IMG/VR virus record: IMGVR_UViG_2663762992_000011
DNA: 14,898 bases
DNA from: a virus
Taxonomy: Duplodnaviria > Heunggongvirae > Uroviricota > Caudoviricetes
Strand: one strand, 5' to 3'
Part shown: piece after piece, positions 6,592-14,898 of the stretch
Position numbering within the stretch: position 1 is the first letter of the stretch
Layout: each line of letters begins with the position of its first letter
The notes under the pieces: model-generated
Database searches by the model: none
What the model was told of the DNA's origin: nothing
What the model saw: the letters and a program-made list of their open reading frames with translations, nothing else
Program-made: the position numbers and the translations under genes

Positions 6592-6616
6592 GCTTATTCA
6601 TGTGCGTAGAAAAGGT

Positions 6617-6727
6617 GTTGGTTCAGTTGGTTCAGTTGGTTCAATTTGTAAAGAGTATTGTTTTATAAGGATTTTATTCTTTTTATTGAACCAACACTGA
6701 ACCAACAACACGGTATTTTGAACCAAC
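6617..6727. repeat. Iteron cluster 1 (candidate replication origin / crr-like site)
   Basis: Three tandem GTTGGTTCA (6617-6625, 6626-6634, 6635-6643), an AT-rich spacer (6644-6687), then three inverted copies TGAACCAAC (6688-6696, 6698-6706, 6719-6727). Located 26 bp after the primase stop. Confidence 0.75.
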
Positions 6728-7046
6728 ACAATGTGACTGAATTGATGCGCACAACACCTGGCTGGCATCAGAGAGTGTTTTACGAGACTTTCGTAAAATC
6801 CTGTGTACAAGGGCGTGACGTTTTGAAAGTGAGCAATACGAAATTTTCGTAGTTCAGAAAACAGCCCCTGAGAAGTTGTTATGCCTGTTCAGCAAACCAT
6901 CCGCATAGCTGATCGCGAATCAAATTACCAATGGAGTCAGAAGCAAGGGCAGAACTGAAAAGCGCCTGCCGTGAAGAGTAATGCGACACCATAAATATAG
7001 TTTTTAGAGTCCATAAAAAACCTGTCAAAACCTGACATACAGAACG

Positions 7047-7174: not shown

Positions 7175-7348
7175 ATGGCTATTTCAGTAAAGCCAGTATT
7201 GATAAGTGAGAAGCAAATGGAAGCGATAAAGAAAATTCAGGAGGAGCAGCGTAAAAAATCAGAGGTAGGAGTTGCGCCAACGATCCACGAAATTGCTCGG
7301 GGATTAATGGATAAGGCGCTGGCTTACACTTTAACTGGACGTGGGTAA
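7175..7348 (+). CDS. Small protein (57 aa), possibly a ribbon-helix-helix-type regulator; absent from the ORF track (below size cut-off)
   Basis: Strong RBS AAGGGGG 4 nt before the ATG at 7175, stop TAA at 7346-7348. Product MAISVKPVLISEKQMEAIKKIQEEQRKKSEVGVAPTIHEIARGLMDKALAYTLTGRG has a strand-helix-helix-like pattern. It directly precedes the large two-gene cargo operon. Confidence 0.45.
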   Translation: MAISVKPVLISEKQMEAIKKIQEEQRKKSEVGVAPTIHEIARGLMDKALAYTLTGRG

Positions 7349-7352
7349 ATTT

Positions 7353-8819
7353 ATGGCTACGTGGCAACAGGGTATTAATTCTGGTGGTTTTCTGGCTGGC
7401 ATTGGTGCGCAAAACGAGAATGCGCCAAAGGCAAGCGACATTAACACAACGCTTGGTCTGATCCGCGAAAACAATGAACTGGCTCGATCAGGTGCAAATA
7501 ACGTTGGTCTGACCGCGTTACGTGGTCTGGCTGGAGTTGCTGATATTTATAAGCAGCAGCAACAGCAGGAACGTAAAGCGGCATTCCAGAAAGGTTATGC
7601 GGATGCTTATGCGTCCGGCGACAGGGAGCAGATGCGTAATCTTATTACAGCATTCCCCGAAGAGTTTGAGGAAGTTCGTAAAGGCATGGGGTATGTCGAT
7701 GACGCCCAGCGGAATGATTTTGGCAATCTGGCGCTTAAGGCTCAGGTCGCTTCGTCGCTTGGTCCGGGTGCATTTGGCAGGTTCATGATGGATAACGAAA
7801 AGGAGATGCGTCGTTTAGGTATCCCTCCAGAAACTATTGCTGAAATGCAGGTTAATGACCCGCAGGGCTTCCAGCATTTCGCAGGTAATCTGGCGCTGTT
7901 TTCTCTCGGTCATGAGAAGTACTTCGATATCAAAGATCGAATGGAAGGTCGGGATATTGAGCGTGGCAAGTTGGCAGAAACAATCCGCAGCAATCAGGCT
8001 GGCGAAGCACTTCAGGCGAGAGGGCAGGATATTAGCCGAGCAAATGCGTTAACGTCAGCATATGCACCAACAGCAGCAATGCAGAATTACAATCAGTACG
8101 CTCAAATGTTAAAGGCGGATCCAGAGGGGGCGGCGGCATTTGCGGCAGCGGCTGGAATTAATACAAACGCCAAAAAATTAATGAGTGTTAGAGAAAACGA
8201 TGATGGCACTGTCACAAAATACTACACAGACGGAAGTGAAGAGCATGGAAAACTAAACCAGCCAATATCTGGAGATGGGTTTCGTCCAATAGCTTTGCCA
8301 ACAGCCCAAAAGATCATGGAAAAGTCGCCAGAAGGGGCTAAAAAAGCTGCTGGATTTGCATACAGAGTTAGGGATGCTCTTGATTCAATGGATACACTGA
8401 AAGGCCAGCTTAGCCCACAGCGAGTGGCGATCATTAATAATGCTTTGGGTAATGGGACGCTGGCTAACTTAACGCTCAGCCCAACAGAGCAGCAATACGT
8501 TGTTAATGCTAATGACGCAATAATGGCAATACTCCGTCAGGAAACAGGGGCAGCTATCGTACCTGCTGAAATGTCAAAATATTATCAAATGTATTTCCCT
8601 CAGCCTGGCGACTCCACAAAAACCATTGATACCAAGCGCCGGAAGATGGAAAACCAGTTCAATTCGCTGAAAGCTGCTTCTGGTCGAGCTTATGATGCTT
8701 TGCGGGTTATTTCAGCAGTTGACAGAGGGACTTCTTCTTCGTCGCAGACATTGCCGCAATCTGAGCAGGTATCACAGCCAGCAGCCAGCAGTAATTTTTC
8801 TTCACTATGGGGTGATTAA
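7353..8819 (+). CDS. Hypothetical protein (488 aa), Ala/Gln-rich, no recognised domain
   Basis: Long ORF (track 7341..8819; ATG at 7353 preferred). Its stop overlaps the start of the next gene (TAATGG). Composition is low-complexity and helical-looking with an S-rich C-terminus; no catalytic motif noticed. Confidence 0.7.
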   Translation: MATWQQGINSGGFLAGIGAQNENAPKASDINTTLGLIRENNELARSGANNVGLTALRGLAGVADIYKQQQQQERKAAFQKGYADAYASGDREQMRNLITAFPEEFEEVRKGMGYVDDAQRNDFGNLALKAQVASSLGPGAFGRFMMDNEKEMRRLGIPPETIAEMQVNDPQGFQHFAGNLALFSLGHEKYFDIKDRMEGRDIERGKLAETIRSNQAGEALQARGQDISRANALTSAYAPTAAMQNYNQYAQMLKADPEGAAAFAAAAGINTNAKKLMSVRENDDGTVTKYYTDGSEEHGKLNQPISGDGFRPIALPTAQKIMEKSPEGAKKAAGFAYRVRDALDSMDTLKGQLSPQRVAIINNALGNGTLANLTLSPTEQQYVVNANDAIMAILRQETGAAIVPAEMSKYYQMYFPQPGDSTKTIDTKRRKMENQFNSLKAASGRAYDALRVISAVDRGTSSSSQTLPQSEQVSQPAASSNFSSLWGD

Positions 8820-10924
8820 TGGCTAAAGCATGGAAAGATGTTATCGCCTCTCCACAGTATCAGGCGTTAGCACCAGAGCAAAAAGCGCAGGCTCAGGAGC
8901 AATACTTCAATGAAGTCGTGGCCCCGCAAGCCGGAGAAAGTGTAGAGCAGGCTAAGCAGGCTTTTTATGCTGCCTATCCACTACCATCAACGAATGAAAT
9001 AGACCGATCCCAATCAGCAACTCAAAATATTCAACATACATCATCTGATAATTCTCTTGCGTCAGGGTATGCAAAGTTAGCTACTCAGCAAAGAGAGGGG
9101 CTTGAGCGTTCAGCAGAACAGGGAGCCAGTCTTGGGGCTGCTATGCGCGATGCTATAACAGGCGAAAGCCGAATGACTCCAGAGATGGAGAGACTGCAAA
9201 ATGTCGACCTTGCCCCAGAGTTAACCTCACTCAGCATGGATGCTCTAAAAGCTCGATGGTCTCAACTTTTCGGCTCTGACGCATCTCAGGAAAAGATTCT
9301 TCAGAGCATGGGAGCGAAATTAAGGCAGGATGAGAAGGGTAACACTATCGTTTCCCTGCCATCCGGTGATTATGCTCTGAACAAGCCGGGTTTATCGCCG
9401 CAAGACGTGGCATCGTTTCTGGCTAATGCGCTGGCGTTTACACCAGCGGGCAGGGCTGGAACGGTGCTTGGTGCCATAGGAAAATCAGCAGCTACAGATT
9501 TAGCACTACAGGGAGCCACCAGCCTTGCTGGTGGAGAAGATATTGATCCGTTACAAACGGTAATTTCTGCTGGCATTGGTGGTATTGGTAAGGGGCTGGA
9601 AAATACAGCGAGTGCGGTTTCGAGGGCTGTTCGTGGTGATATGTCGCCTGAAGCAAAGGCTGCTGTCAACTTTGCATCGGAAAGAAATCTGCCGTTAATG
9701 ACCAGTGACATGCTGAAAGATAAAACCTTTATGCAGAGTCAGGCTCAGACATTAGGCGAAAGAGTTCCTTTTTTTGGAACCGGTAAGAATCGGCTGAATC
9801 AACAACAAGCACGAGAAAATTTAGTCAGAACATTTAGCGATGGTCTGGGTGGCATTTCTGATAAACAGCTTTATGAATCTGCGACTAAAGGGCAACAAAA
9901 ATTCATTGAGGCAGCAGGAAAGCGATATAACCGCATAATTGACGCTATGGGGGATACCCCTGTCGATCTCTCAAACACGGTAAAAGCTATCGACAATCAG
10001 ATTGCCGTGTTAAGCCGCCCGGGAAAATCTCAGGATAGAGCCGCGGTAAAAGTCTTGCAGCAATTTAAAGACGATATCACCAGCGGACCAAATGACCTGC
10101 GTCTGGCGAGGGAAAACAGAACCGATCTTCGAAAGCGATTTATGGCGTCATCTGACACTGTTGATAAAGATACGCTCCAGAAAGCCAGCGATATTATCTA
10201 CAAGGCATATACGGCGGATATGAAAAAAGCCGTAGCCAAAAATCTTGGAGCAGACGAAGCCATTAATATGGCAAGGGTTGATCGCTCATGGTCTAAATTC
10301 AATGACATGATGGGAAGAACGCGCGTTCAAAAGGCAATAGCCAGCGGCAAGGCCACGCCTGAGGATGTAACAAAACTCGTTTTTAGCCAAAGCCCATCAG
10401 AACGTTCTCAGCTTTACAGGCTTCTGGATGACAATGGTAGGCAAAACGCACGAGCAGCCATAGTTCAGAATGCTGTAGATAAGGCGACTGATCCGTCTGG
10501 AAATATCAGTGTTGAGAAGTTTATTAATGCGTTACACCGGAACAGGAAGCAATCAGCAACTTTCTTTAAAGGCGTACATGGAAAGGAACTGGACGGCGTT
10601 ATTAAATACCTCAACGATACAAGACACGCGGCAAAAGCGAACGTTCAAAACTTAAATGGTCAGCAGCTTTATGGATTGTTAGTTGGTGGTGGCATCATAA
10701 ACGCAGCAGTATTAGCGGGGATGCTAAAAACGGCTGCGTTTGTTGTTCCTGCTGCTGGTGCCGTAGGCGGAGCCGCGAAGGCATACGAAAGCCCTGTTAT
10801 ACGAAATGCCTTGTTACGTCTGGCAAATACGCCAAAAGGTAGCACAGCATATGACAGAGCGATCAGTACGGTCACACAATCACTGACCACAGCAGCACAA
10901 GCATCGCAAAAGGAAGCTCAATAA
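8819..10924 (+). CDS. Hypothetical protein (701 aa) with a C-terminal Gly/Ala-rich hydrophobic hairpin-like segment
   Basis: Long ORF coupled to the upstream gene. Near the C-terminus, LLVGGGIINAAVLAGMLKTAAFVVPAAGAVGGAA forms two hydrophobic Gly/Ala-zipper stretches split by KT. The rest is hydrophilic and Ala/Gln/Lys-rich. No family recognised. Confidence 0.75.
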   Translation: MAKAWKDVIASPQYQALAPEQKAQAQEQYFNEVVAPQAGESVEQAKQAFYAAYPLPSTNEIDRSQSATQNIQHTSSDNSLASGYAKLATQQREGLERSAEQGASLGAAMRDAITGESRMTPEMERLQNVDLAPELTSLSMDALKARWSQLFGSDASQEKILQSMGAKLRQDEKGNTIVSLPSGDYALNKPGLSPQDVASFLANALAFTPAGRAGTVLGAIGKSAATDLALQGATSLAGGEDIDPLQTVISAGIGGIGKGLENTASAVSRAVRGDMSPEAKAAVNFASERNLPLMTSDMLKDKTFMQSQAQTLGERVPFFGTGKNRLNQQQARENLVRTFSDGLGGISDKQLYESATKGQQKFIEAAGKRYNRIIDAMGDTPVDLSNTVKAIDNQIAVLSRPGKSQDRAAVKVLQQFKDDITSGPNDLRLARENRTDLRKRFMASSDTVDKDTLQKASDIIYKAYTADMKKAVAKNLGADEAINMARVDRSWSKFNDMMGRTRVQKAIASGKATPEDVTKLVFSQSPSERSQLYRLLDDNGRQNARAAIVQNAVDKATDPSGNISVEKFINALHRNRKQSATFFKGVHGKELDGVIKYLNDTRHAAKANVQNLNGQQLYGLLVGGGIINAAVLAGMLKTAAFVVPAAGAVGGAAKAYESPVIRNALLRLANTPKGSTAYDRAISTVTQSLTTAAQASQKEAQ

Positions 10925-11500: not shown

Positions 11501-11935
11501 CAGTACGCGCATATCCGCTTTATGTGAAACAGGAAGATTTTTCTGATATCACTGCCACAGCAAAACACCAATTTCGTGACCAGTACGCGCGCGAGGGGTA
11601 TCAGTTGCAAAAATTTTGCAACTACGTCCGACCAGTACGCACACAATGGCGGGGAGCACCATAAAAGCGTTCTCTACATGAGACAGAGTGGTGGTGATGT
11701 GTTGATTATCGGCGTATATGCGCACAGGACGCGCTATGACAATGTTTTATGCGGGTACACCAATCACATGTATCTGGTGTGATAAATCGCGTTACATGAC
11801 ATCTCATGTTGTGCTGGTGGTTATAACGACGTTCTGAATCTGGCCTTTGCCTGATATTTTGCGACAAGTACGCGCGCGTAGCATCGACAGCATACACATT
11901 GGATATTCATTTTGTGACCAATGCGATAAGTAGCG
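11501..11935. repeat. Dispersed family of about 20-bp repeats (approx. ATTTyGyGACCArTACGCGCGCG); a further copy at 13502-13527
   Basis: Copies at about 11501-11512, 11572-11593, 11626-11642, 11857-11880 (containing the perfect palindrome TACGCGCGCGTA) and 11910-11935, plus 13502-13527. On the minus strand several copies translate to variants of the C-terminus (...LIPLxxxLVTK) of the small ORF 11907..12065. Confidence 0.4.
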
Positions 11936-12712: not shown

Positions 12713-12765
12713 GCTCAAATATCAGCCAGAAAATAACGGACCAATCACAAATCTATCGCTGTGTT

Positions 12766-12886
12766 GTTGGTTCAGAGCTGGGCTGTGTTGGTTCAAAATG
12801 AGTTGATGTTGGTTCAATATTTTAGAAAAAACACAATAAAAACAACGCTCTTTACAAATTGAACCAACTGAACCAACTGAACCAAC
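12766..12886. repeat. Iteron cluster 2 (candidate crr/ori-like site), mirror image of cluster 1
   Basis: Three spaced GTTGGTTCA (12766-12774, 12787-12795, 12808-12816), an AT-rich spacer (12817-12859), then three tandem TGAACCAAC (12860-12868, 12869-12877, 12878-12886). This is the reverse-complement arrangement of cluster 1. Confidence 0.75.
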
Positions 12887-12922
12887 ACCTTTTTGCTTAT
12901 CTATATAATCTGAGAGGCAGAA

Positions 12923-13210
12923 ATGATAAGGGACAGGAAAGCTGAAGAGCTGGAGTCAAAAGGGCTATACCGGAGAGCTGCCGCACGATGGGCAGAAGTC
13001 ATGATGCTGGCAGATGGCGATAAAGAACGTGAACATGCAGCAAACAGACGCTCTGAATGTATCCGTAAGGCGGCACGCCCACCAGCAACTACAGACAGAT
13101 TCGGAGATTTAAGACAGGCAGTTAAGCGAACTCATTCGGCTCTTGGTATGGATGAGGAAGCGAGAGGGTACTTCAGGCGTTATCGCGATAAAGATTGCCA
13201 GAGACAGTAA
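12923..13210 (+). CDS. PerC-family-like small transcriptional regulator (95 aa; tentative)
   Basis: MIRDRKAEELESKGLYRRAAARWAEVMMLADGDKEREHAANRRSECIRKAARP matches my recollection of the PerC-family N-terminal pattern (AEELE..GLYRRAA.RW). RBS-like GAGAGG precedes the ATG. Confidence 0.55.
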   Translation: MIRDRKAEELESKGLYRRAAARWAEVMMLADGDKEREHAANRRSECIRKAARPPATTDRFGDLRQAVKRTHSALGMDEEARGYFRRYRDKDCQRQ

Positions 13211-13309
13211 TGCTCTCTCTGTTTTGGCAAATTACCCCTCACTTTGAAGGGATCGGAGCTATAAAAATGGTTTTAGGTACATTCCTCAAATTGAGGATTG
13301 TGGAAAAAC

Positions 13310-13364
13310 CAATGGGTTAGGCTTTTCCCCCAATGGGGGTTTTCGAAAGTATCAATGGGTTAGG
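13310..13364. repeat. Direct repeats CAATGGGTTAGG (x2) with a partial CAATGGG copy between, at about 21-22 bp phasing
   Basis: Copies at 13310-13321 and 13353-13364, partial copy at 13331-13337. An adjacent perfect palindrome TCCTCAA-A-TTGAGGA lies at 13282-13296. Helical phasing suggests a protein-binding array. Confidence 0.35.
13327..13344 (+). terminator. Weak terminator-like hairpin CCCCC-AAT-GGGGG followed by TTTT
   Basis: 5-bp G/C stem, 3-nt loop and T-run about 115 bp after the PerC-like stop. It overlaps the CAATGGG repeat, so it may be a binding site and not a terminator. Confidence 0.3.
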
Positions 13365-13886
13365 TCATCGTGCAAATTTGCACTCTGCCAGCCAACGCAT
13401 TTTTTCGTTGGCGGGAATATCAGGTATTTACTGATTCTGCCGACTCACAAGGATGCGAGAACCTTATAAAACCTAATATCGCAGAGCTTAATTGTGTACA
13501 GCAATTTCACGAGCAATACGCGCGCACAGGACAACGAGCCTGAACATGGTTACACACCTCAATCATGAGGGATGTAGGTAATGGCTTCAGACCAAAGCAA
13601 CCAAAATAGCTTCGGCCAGCGCGTAAAACGCTCTTGGTAGAAACTCGATGAACTGGATGATGAGCACAACACAAGAAGAATTGTGATTATCACAATAGAG
13701 GCAAAATTATGCCCACACCTTCAATTGCGCGGATAACACCAGAAAAAACTGTGTACATAAGGGTGTACATAATCAAAAACCGCATTAGAAAGAAACCAGC
13801 TACAATGCGGCATTGAAGCCAATACTCTACAAACAGATCCAACATTGAATAACTCGTAACGCCAATTCTTCCTTTTCAGCCTTCAC

Positions 13887-13920
13887 AAATGCCGCCCACT
13901 CAAACAGAGCGGCATTTTTC
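13887..13920 (+). terminator. Rho-independent terminator (AAATGCCGC ... GCGGCATTTTT)
   Basis: 7-9-bp stem with a 13-nt loop and a T-run, about 150 bp upstream of dinD. No + strand ORF lies directly upstream, so it may terminate an unannotated transcript or mark a junction. Confidence 0.5.
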
Positions 13921-14010
13921 CTCCCCGCAACATTCAATTCTGTTTTGCGTGCCTGCTCCAGATTTTGCGATGTTTTTTTGCCCAGCGCAGTGAGAACGTG
14001 AGATACTTAC

Positions 14011-14030
14011 AACTGTATATAAACACAGTT
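14011..14030. promoter_or_regulatory. LexA box of dinD (AACTGTATATAAACACAGTT)
   Basis: CTGT-N8-ACAG with an AT-rich spacer, embedded in a longer palindrome (TACAACTGT...ACAGTTGTA). Near-identical to the dinD SOS box as I remember it. Sits 44 bp upstream of the dinD ATG. Confidence 0.8.
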
Positions 14031-14073
14031 GTAGACTTACTTTCCTTGCAATCGATATCACATGGAGTGGGCA

Positions 14074-14898
14074 ATGAACGAACATCATCAACCTTTTGAA
14101 GAGATAAAGCTGATTAATGCAAACGGAGCAGAACAATGGTCAGCAAGACAACTTGGAAAACTACTGGGTTATTCAGAGTATCGTCACTTTATACCTGTAT
14201 TAACGCGCGCCAAAGAAGCTTGTCTGAATAGTGGTCACACAATTGATGACCATTTCGAGGAGATCCTCGATATGGTCAAAATTGGCTCAAATGCCAAAAG
14301 AGCATTAAAAGACATCGTACTCTCCCGCTATGCCTGTTACCTGGTAGTACAAAACGGCGACCCTGCGAAACCGGTTATTGCGGCAGGACAAACTTATTTT
14401 GCTATCCAGACCCGACGGCAGGAGCTGGCTGACGATGAAGCTTTCAGGCAACTTCGTGAAGACGAAAAGCGTCTTTTTCTGAGAAATGAGTTGAAAGAAC
14501 ATAACAAACAATTAGTTGAGGCAGCGCAGCAAGCTGGGGTAGCGACAGCTATCGATTTCGCCATATTTCAGAATCATGGTTACCGGGGACTGTATGGTGG
14601 ATTAGATCAGAAAGCCATCCATCAGCGGAAGGGGCTGAAAAAGAGTCAGAAGATCCTGGATCATATGGGTTCAATAGAACTGGCGGCTAATCTCTTTCGA
14701 GCTACCCAAACAGAAGAAAAACTCAAGCGGGATGGCGTGAATTCAAAACAGCAAGCTAATACCACACACTTTGACGTGGGTAGCAAGGTGAGGCAAACCA
14801 TTCAGGAACTTGGCGGAACCATGCCTGAGGAGTTGCCGACCCCGCAGGTCAGCATCAAGCAGTTGGAAAACAGTGTAAAAATTACAGAGAAGAAATAG
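14074..14898 (+). CDS. dinD: DNA damage-inducible protein D
   Basis: ATG at 14074 with GGAG RBS gives a 274-aa product starting MNEHHQPFEEIKLINANGAEQWSARQLGKLLGYSEYRHFIPVLTRAKEACLNSGH. Length and N-terminus are consistent with enterobacterial DinD, and it is preceded by a canonical LexA box. Stop TAG is the last codon of the window. Confidence 0.85.
   Translation: MNEHHQPFEEIKLINANGAEQWSARQLGKLLGYSEYRHFIPVLTRAKEACLNSGHTIDDHFEEILDMVKIGSNAKRALKDIVLSRYACYLVVQNGDPAKPVIAAGQTYFAIQTRRQELADDEAFRQLREDEKRLFLRNELKEHNKQLVEAAQQAGVATAIDFAIFQNHGYRGLYGGLDQKAIHQRKGLKKSQKILDHMGSIELAANLFRATQTEEKLKRDGVNSKQQANTTHFDVGSKVRQTIQELGGTMPEELPTPQVSIKQLENSVKITEKK

Follow-up and report, generated by a model that had tools for sequence, protein, structure and literature searches.

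Right attachment site of a probable EcCIMP1-family phage satellite at the 3′ end of yicC, upstream of dinD in Escherichia coli

The stretch of DNA analysed here (14,898 nucleotides, hereafter the window) carries, over most of its length, part of an island of about 18 kb, and beyond it the chromosomal gene dinD, which starts at 14074. The island's genes encode AntA, Ash, a primase with Zn-ribbon, Toprim and DUF927 domains, homologues of P22 ejection proteins and PerC; iteron blocks follow the primase gene, and the set is completed by an antisense RNA of the C4 type and, adjoining int, a gene of the AlpA type. This is the composition of a Gram-negative PICI, namely int, alpA, a replication module with its ori and accessory genes, and the size lies within the 12–20 kb expected of one. 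Capsid, tail and lysis genes are missing, leaving the P22 ejection-protein homologues as the sole phage-like structural content. We focused on 13211–14073, the interval between perC, which every related island has under the annotation PerC family regulator, and dinD. Its features, with the basis for each call, are as follows.

12923–13210, + strand: final island gene, perC family (Pfam PerC, E 2.6e-33)
13235–13364, + strand: tandem fragments of a phage Rha/Roi-type gene (repeat structure and phage-gene homology)
13365–13437, + strand: conserved island-end element (84–98% conserved in 24 copies)
13433–13483, + strand: phage small-terminase gene fragment, in frame, ..DSA.SQGCENLIKPNIA.. (terS homology)
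13504–13530, + strand: copy of a dispersed repeat, ATTTCRCGAsmARTACGCGCGC (other copies at 11571, 11630 and 11856)
13607–13736, no strand assigned: variable filler with the second palindrome (similarity in L022, L029, L003 and L038 resumes at 13737)
13737–13833, + strand: conserved P arm (the unit recurs in other yicC islands with different cargo)
13751–13772, + strand: putative doubled arm-type integrase site, GTGTACATAA twice with a 12-bp period (motif distribution and co-variation with the integrase)
13834–13852, + strand: attR core, the yicC 3′ end CAGATCC--AACATTGAATAA with a 2-bp deletion (alignment with K-12 and PK8275)
13853–14073, + strand: native yicC–dinD intergenic region (collinear with island-free genomes)

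The first-pass annotation had described this interval as non-coding, and no open reading frame longer than 57 codons occurs in 13211–14061. Nor is there a tRNA in the window or an integrase domain in its ten largest open reading frames, as it had also stated. The repeats and palindromes that it listed are all in the sequence, some with coordinates 1–3 bases off (one base for the palindromes; the dispersed repeat runs from 13504 to 13530). The spacer that holds them is modular: 13211–13434 goes with perC across islands with different integrases, 13737–13833 goes with the yicC integrase, and the middle varies.

The island–chromosome junction

A genome search matched the dinD side of the interval in 4774 of 5426 complete E. 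coli genomes at 96–99% identity, and 75 of the 5426 covered at least 80% of a 2-kb query running from perC to dinD. In island-free strains, K-12 included, the alignment begins abruptly at window position 13834–13844, with none further left. What K-12 has at that point is the final 12–21 bases of yicC, after which comes its native yicC–dinD spacer of 220 bp. Strains that carry the island have the gene order intact yicC, tyrosine integrase, ~18 kb of island ending in perC, spacer, dinD. The position of the yicC tail in K-12 and the gene order in carriers together indicate that the island sits in the 3′ end of yicC and that 13853–14073 is native DNA. It had been proposed that dinD and its upstream sequence are chromosomal core, which their collinearity with island-free genomes bears out, and that the right attachment site and island–chromosome junction lie in the region, which we can now place at 13834–13852. 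Alignment to island-free strains was the suggested means of locating the junction; since these strains hold only 13834/13841–14073, the interval is not collinear as a whole in them; full collinearity would have moved the junction elsewhere.

The copy of the yicC tail that recombines is 21 bp long, comprising six codons and the stop, and two of its bases are missing from the attR in the window. attB reads GAG-CAGATYCAGAAYATYGARTAA-CTCGTAACG; attL is the 21-mer CAGATYCAGAAYATYGARTAA followed by island sequence GCCATCAGTAAAAATC...; and the window's attR is island sequence followed by CAGATCC--AACATTGAATAA-CTCGTAACG. The identity block CAGATYCAGAAYATYGARTAA is therefore found in attB, attL and attP, with 2 bp fewer in this attR. 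The island-free strain PK8275 has synonymous variants and downstream polymorphisms exactly as in the window, from which it follows that the attR copy is the displaced native yicC tail minus two bases. At attL the yicC tail is supplied by the island, along with a new hairpin terminator. Mosaics of yicC tail alleles suggest that the crossover falls at about 13840–13842, positions 7–11 of the 21-mer. For example, L003 has CAGATTC..GAATATC at attL and CAGATCC at attR, and attP has CAGATCC. The native terminator of yicC stands downstream of the core as a hairpin at 13887–13917 followed by a T run (dG -12.4, fold z -5.2). A promoter and terminator scan of the region, whose counts were at chance level, overlooked it because of its 13-nt loop. 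Further on, in the promoter region of dinD, a LexA-box dyad, CTG-N10-CAG, lies inside a hairpin-like stretch at 14008–14033.

The left end of the island and its integrase gene are outside the window (in related genomes int lies just beyond the window's left edge), and for the window's copy we take both the attL direct repeat and the integrase from relatives that are 96–99% identical. A search of the far end in these relatives, as had been recommended, found the repeat of the 21-mer at attL and, beside yicC, a gene for a 419-aa integrase, a tyrosine recombinase whose reading frame begins 189 bp past the yicC stop. This int/attL module is carried by 321 of the 5426 complete E. coli genomes (~6%).

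Read in this way, 13211–14073 is very probably the right end of an integrated EcCIMP1-family PICI together with native DNA that the island displaced. On these alignments the site would be the attR of a ~18-kb phage satellite inserted in the final 21 bases of E. coli yicC. The first-pass annotation had regarded insertion next to dinD as an unusual target, but the target is yicC, which is not unusual because it is already documented. It is an integration target of reference PICIs with shifting identity blocks (Williams-lab preprint); a 15,957-bp yicC element, packaged and of 16 kb in round figures, was recovered from phage DNA of ciprofloxacin-induced O157:H7 cultures (PMC4587872); and SGI1-like elements and MGIs insert at the yicC 3′ end, with yicC integrases that are treated as a separate grouping (PMC8409611). 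By description only, the reference yicC PICIs and the O157:H7 element have the target gene in common with the window. The likeness to SGI1-like elements and MGIs, again by description only, is confined to the chromosomal target, as these are conjugatively mobilised and carry unrelated genes in place of phage-satellite content. Two smaller PICI-like islands at the yicC site, L038 and L039, have the att architecture of the window but only 0–11% of island DNA in common with it.

The closest relation of the island body occupies a different chromosomal target. Window 73–13434 matches the tRNA-Thr (thrW-type) island L010 at 98% identity across 93% of the window's island portion, with the homology ending at 13434. 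Because it ends there, 13435–13833, the core, the P′ arm and int can be seen as one exchangeable cassette in the circular form, and the integration module (P arm, core, P′ arm and int) as having been swapped as a single unit between the yicC and tRNA-Thr versions of the island. The context of L010 (proA, tRNA-Thr, island, MarR/Vat islet, yagU) matches the published EcCIMP1 locus, and that of L009 does likewise. We take L010 to be EcCIMP1 from the published description of the locus rather than from a comparison of sequences. The backbone is also alike: int, alpA, an antA antirepressor gene, Ash, primase, P22-type ‘DNA transfer’ genes and perC last. The window's island differs in having the 419-aa integrase, which is 29% identical to that of the EcCIMP1 type, the yicC 3′ end as target and the motif GTGTACATAA, where the EcCIMP1 type has tRNA-Thr and TGGGGGTA. 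EcCIMP1 is excised and circularised in an Int- and AlpA-dependent manner on induction of the P22-like phage Kapi1, which transduces it (PMC11773190).

Arm-type sites and the excised form

In attP sites of the lambda and P4 type, a heterobivalent tyrosine integrase uses a separate arm-binding domain to contact arm sites on both sides of the core. Candidates for such sites stand out in the islands at yicC. The GTGTACATAA copies lie at 13751–13760 and 13763–13772, and within the 42-kb locus the exact motif GTGTACATA occurs five times, each time at an island end (5/5). Chance would give 0.30 copies in 42 kb, and a count of five did not arise in any of 300 shuffles. At each end there are two direct copies 12 bp apart, which in the window start at 13751 and 13763, and one inverted copy stands just upstream of the int ATG. 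Counted from the start of the core, the sites are at -83 and -71 on one side and at +129 and +141 on the other, with the inverted copy at +172 and the int ATG at +209. This puts the centre of one doubled motif ~80.5 bp upstream of the predicted crossover and that of the other ~131.5 bp downstream.

The motif changes with the integrase. In the thrW-type islands, which have the backbone in common with the window's island and an integrase only 29% identical, the motif is TGGGGGTA, keeping the offsets 0, +12 and +43 beside int, and near attR there is again a pair with 12-bp spacing. In a further two yicC islands the DNA of the integrase region is 81% and 75% identical to the query, and such diverged yicC integrases go with variants of the GTGTACACAA/GTGTACCCAA type that are concordant between both ends of each island. 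Altogether, four integrase types have four versions of the motif at unchanged offsets, and the P arms of three integrase variants align without indels from the doubled motif to the core. The yicC- and thrW-type integrases are both composed of Arm-DNA-bind_3, Phage_int_M and Phage_integrase domains, the arm-binding domain being recognised at E 9e-20 by Pfam Arm-DNA-bind_3. We suggest on this basis that the arm domain of Int binds the doubled GTGTACATAA (GTGTACATAAGGGTGTACATAA). AlpA or another protein could also be the binder of doubled motifs of this kind (PMC10111431). In species-representative genomes the doubled motif gave three matches only, in Colwellia and Psychrobacter, which we attribute to chance.

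The geometry is close to that reported for helper-embedded PICIs, in which a co-oriented tandem motif with a 12-bp period lies 81 ± 2 bp upstream and 132 ± 2 bp downstream of the crossover (PMC10111431). Period and distances (~80.5 and ~131.5 bp) are alike in the window-type islands, but the motif is TGTATTGC there and GTGTACATA here. The motif of the helper-embedded PICIs was reported as not found in other PICIs (PMC10111431). The layout described here extends a geometry known so far from one PICI integrase clade. Features of the lambda/P4-type attP are likewise present, namely an arm domain, repeated arm sites flanking the core, replacement of the target's 3′ end and a small HTH protein of the AlpA/Vis type encoded nearby; on the other hand, the window-type attP is without an exact IHF consensus, and the roles of its sites are assigned by sequence.

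A scan of metagenomes with the junction-proximal island sequence as query returned 19 loci. Two contigs among them, L022 and L029, are joined attP sites in which the right end of the island, the P arm, the full 21-mer CAGATCCAGAATATCGAATAA, the P′ arm and int follow one another; they have no chromosomal flank, and their homology to the chromosome is exactly 21 bp. These contigs show that real samples contain the island in a circular, concatemeric or tandem state, and they could derive from tandem or concatemeric copies instead of monomer circles. A search of attP for the exact IHF consensus found none.

The joined contigs also bear on which features of the spacer serve the integrase. The first-pass annotation had assigned the phased CAATGGG(TTAGG) repeats (CAATGGGTTAGG) to arm sites, a palindrome to the core and the region upstream of dinD to the target. 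The repeats and palindromes do exist, are non-random as a cluster and are placed after the island's final gene but before the chromosome, as such a reading would have it. The CAATGGG repeats, however, are 470–520 bp away from the junction, match the coding sequence of a phage gene and are missing from two yicC islands that retain the P arm (L003 and L038); their conservation, on the other hand, extends to islands at thrW, fis and bioD whose integrases are unrelated. The first palindrome belongs with them to the backbone found at yicC, thrW, fis and bioD and to the stretch of phage Rha/Roi coding homology, and since both are common to islands with different integrases we conclude that they are not integrase sites. 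As for a palindromic core, the attP contigs lack the second palindrome, and homology to island-free strains begins in the yicC tail, which is the real core, not at a palindrome. We consider this assignment very improbable. The feature that did hold up as a likely integrase site is the tandem GTGTACATAA, which had been listed without being singled out; the CAATGGG repeats and both palindromes did not.

With the yicC tail as core and the doubled GTGTACATAA as arm sites, integration probably proceeds as follows. A P4-type tyrosine integrase would recombine the 21-bp attP block with the last six codons and stop of yicC. The left junction, attL, would gain the island-borne yicC tail and new terminator, and the native tail and terminator would be moved to attR, upstream of dinD. 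The N-terminal arm domains of the integrase would bind the doubled GTGTACATAA at 13751–13772 in the P arm, as well as the matching doubled site and inverted copies beside int in the P′ arm. Its catalytic domains would act on the core, with strand exchange around positions 7–11 of the 21-mer (window ~13840), the exact cleavage points being predictions. By analogy with EcCIMP1, excision would need Int and an AlpA-type protein and be triggered by a P22-like helper phage. The element is, in sum, a yicC-integrating PICI with a textbook-style attP, and earlier descriptions exist of its family as well as of its target. The finding is real but ordinary, because elements of this kind, and this site of insertion, were known before, and it leaves the general picture of how such islands work unchanged. 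What it fixes, for the annotation of a PICI family in ~6% of complete E. coli genomes, is the exact right boundary, the core and the arm sites.

The remainder of the spacer

The interval 13211–13736 is outside the recombination site and consists of the fragments of rha/roi and terS, the island-end element, the dispersed repeat and the variable filler. The rha/roi part has two clear 43-bp units, 13282–13321 and 13325–13364, each a short palindrome followed by ATCAATGGGTTAGG. Its first palindrome, TCCTCAA-A-TTGAGGA, is at 13283–13297 (fold z -3.1). CAATGGG is found at 13310, 13331 and 13353, with spacings of 21 and 22 bp and all three inside the 43-bp units, and its four copies in the window against 2.7 expected are not significant by count alone. 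Window 13262–13324 has 85–88% identity to codons ~36–56 of roi/antirepressor genes of Stx-type phages, and 13325–13365 has 90% identity to a ‘DNA-binding protein’ gene of Stx2 phages. In blastx the units gave KNG..PQIEDCG.xNGLG and PPMG..INGLG, to be compared with the Rha/Roi pattern ..KNGVIR-x9-INGLG... These fragments are common to the yicC-type and thrW-type islands. We rejected the CAATGGG units as iterons or terminase sites, as they matched phage coding sequence.

The island-end element contains the palindrome GTGCAAATTTGCAC (13370–13383) and the hairpin CCAGCCAACG-N8-CGTTGGCGGG (13388–13415, fold z -3.1), and its copies include those of capsid-forming PICIs at fis and near bioD. On this distribution it is backbone and not integrase-linked. 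That one island-end element is common to different PICI families is a side observation of this work; the element, with its co-varying hairpin set in Rha-like sequence, may be a functional cis-element of several such families. The terS fragment has 94% identity over 51 nt to nt 97–147 of a lambdoid prophage terS and is present in the window, L002 and L008 only. Further along, RTACGCGCGC, part of the dispersed repeat, has three exact matches on one strand against 0.01 expected, and the repeat is also in L029 and L004. The second palindrome, ATTGTGAT-T-ATCACAAT, is at 13680–13696 (fold z -3.7) within the filler 13607–13736, which is missing from L022 and L029 (the attP contigs) and from L003 and L038. 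Like the rha/roi and terS fragments, this segment shows no link to the integrase.

Part of the spacer might serve as a packaging signal for a helper terminase, with the terS fragment (13433–13483) or an island-end element taken as 13325–13437 as candidates. The pac site of P22-type phages lies inside the small-terminase gene, from within which the 51-nt fragment stems; PICIs have packaging sites near one end; and the island-end element is conserved across otherwise differing PICI families. The fragment, however, is confined to three island copies and missing from the excised L022 and L029, which makes it an unlikely pac site, and P22-like helpers are indicated both by the phage-like genes of the island and by its characterised relative, while the head module of the prophage that donated terS (DUF1073 portal, DUF2213, DUF2184) is unlike the P22-type module, which counts against packaging as well. 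In capsid-forming PICIs with their own terminase, the island-end element is in the opposite orientation to the neighbouring operon, and lambda cosN and P4 cos have no match in the spacer. We regard a packaging role as unlikely.

Somewhat less unlikely, though still improbable, is that the spacer encodes a small RNA, or else a structure that regulates or terminates perC, formed by a variable-stem hairpin followed by UUUUCG and by downstream hairpins. Three versions of the stem at the same columns stay complementary, one of them pairing only via G.U; the hairpins fold better than shuffles; and the location is directly 3′ of perC. Yet the same stem versions are found inside phage protein-coding genes, capsid-forming PICIs have the opposite orientation with respect to nearby transcription, the CCCCC hairpin is no better than shuffles (z -0.8), and promoter and terminator calls were not above chance. 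Rfam gave the spacer no meaningful score, its best hit in E-value mode being to an unrelated snRNA (18.9 bits, E 0.45). In gathering mode over the whole window, it placed C4 and isrK elsewhere and left the spacer empty.

A ‘BRO family protein’ annotated beside perC in strain PK5 is in fact the 5′ portion of a dinD gene that an IS3 has interrupted.

Deletions at attR

A second side observation is a deletion series at attR in a protein-coding target. The attR set comprised 21 sequences (counting L038 and L039 makes 22 complete ones: 21 that have the window-type P arm, the two just named, and a subtraction of one for L017, which is truncated). In 20 of the 21 attR alleles there are deletions, some 2 to 16 bp long, that start right after CAGATYCA(G) (or CAGATTCAG) and run to the host side only; the full 21-mer is kept only in L025 and L039. 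About 18 distinct attR alleles, at the least, can be told apart, and the 2-bp deletion class is recurrent, being present on several host alleles as well as in another type of island. The deletions start at positions 7–11 of the 21-mer, where strand exchange was mapped. In the sister islands at tRNA-Thr (thrW), the displaced acceptor stem/tRNA fragment has one base missing.

Deletions of attR gene fragments with a fixed start and variable length have been described in PICIs and not in prophages, and were proposed to act like an addiction module (PMC10111431). The 2-bp gap in the window matches this PICI-typical attR ‘damage’, with the difference that the published targets are tRNA genes and the target of the yicC islands is a protein-coding tail; how the deletion arose we consider below. 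Being 2 bp short at the predicted crossover, the window's copy may be incapable of precise excision. A search of island-free genomes for the 2-bp scar found none that carries it, so there is no sign of damaged copies of the 2-bp allele excising and persisting.

The deletions could be ordinary neutral decay of a useless gene fragment, neither made by the integrase nor selected. The displaced tail is without function, and mutations in it would therefore be tolerated. Neutral decay does not, however, readily account for at least 18 alleles among 21 attR sequences that have a single deletion start point and extend to the host side only, for a 2-bp deletion that arose on several host alleles and in another island type, for flanks that are still 96–99% identical, or for a pattern published as PICI-specific (PMC10111431), and we think it a poor candidate.

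It is possible, though we propose it only tentatively, that the integrase itself produces the fixed-start, one-sided deletions, either as the island integrates or later. One route would be religation of the 3′-phosphotyrosyl intermediate to a recessed host-side 5′ end; alternatively, the second strand exchange might fail when the overlap is heterologous. If the integrase does make them, precise excision would leave a frameshifted yicC end (scar ..CAGATCCAACATTGA), PICI ‘addiction by attR damage’ would extend from tRNA genes to a protein-coding gene, and the cleavage site would be pinpointed. The attR allele series offers a sequence-level map of strand exchange and a clean, testable case of such damage in a protein-coding target.

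Repeats and the conserved island end

Iterons, a dispersed repeat and a conserved element at the island end lie at the following window positions (the last of them also in two further loci, L040 and L041):

6610-6730 and 12761-12893, GTTGGTTCA iterons, two blocks in inverted orientation
11571-11593, 11630-11649, 11856-11878 and 13504-13530, dispersed repeat ATTTCGTGACCAGTACGCGCGCG, all copies on one strand
13325-13437 (L040 7001-7080; L041 7001-7096), conserved island-end element

The inverted iteron blocks match over 55 nt at 96%, with shorter arms besides. One block begins 19 bp past the primase-helicase gene and the other lies immediately upstream of perC, a layout that resembles the paired ori and crr sites in satellite P4. 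Copies of the ATTTCGTGACCAGTACGCGCGCG repeat adjoin breakpoints of differing cargo between islands, as where an Abi gene is inserted between 11887 and 12241 in loci L002 and L008, and the repeat could mark sites of cassette exchange or represent shared promoters.

The island-end element is common to islands resembling EcCIMP1, a characterised Escherichia coli PICI, and to capsid-forming PICIs located at fis or close to bioD, in which it lies at the chromosome-proximal end. Its first hairpin occurs in three stem versions that keep complementarity (CCCC/GGGG, CCTGC/GCAGG and CCTCAA/TTGAGG), and the identical three versions are found internally, at the homologous position, in phage rha/roi-type genes.

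Probable immunity RNAs and ejection-protein homologues

Two RNA matches and homologues of phage ejection proteins are also present in the window:

1876-1953, + strand, isrK (Rfam, 67 bits, above the gathering score)
2016-2103, + strand, C4 antisense RNA (Rfam, 79.5 bits, above the gathering score)
7341-10924, homologues of gp20 (Pfam Inj_translocase) and gp16, ejection proteins of phage P22

The isrK and C4 matches both fall within the annotated Ash ORF region and point to RNA-based immunity of the P1/P4 type in the EcCIMP1-like PICI family. Over 7343-8981, nucleotide identity to P22-group phages is 84-87%, and in related islands DUF2824 and one more small gene are also present upstream of the ejection-protein homologues, which the EcCIMP1 authors termed ‘DNA transfer’ genes (PMC11773190).

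Integration loci among carriers

At tRNA-Thr, islands are arranged in tandem at one att site. There, the EcCIMP1-like island is followed by the MarR/Vat islet and by what is left of a second integrase:

L009 20567-20905 and L010 20513-20848, second-integrase remnant, arm-binding domain only

Around attR and dinD, carriers vary. In one host lineage (strain U12A, L004 16001-18457; L019, L020 and L025), dinD is absent, a different sequence (GCGACATATCTCC...) lies to the right of the yicC tail, and between perC and attR the island has two genes, one for a Doc-family toxin and one hypothetical. Other carriers bear insertion sequences within or adjoining the native yicC-dinD spacer (L008 20875-22095; L037 2930-4143). 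Strain MSB1_8G has ISKox3 between attR and dinD, and in strain PK5 dinD is split by an IS3.
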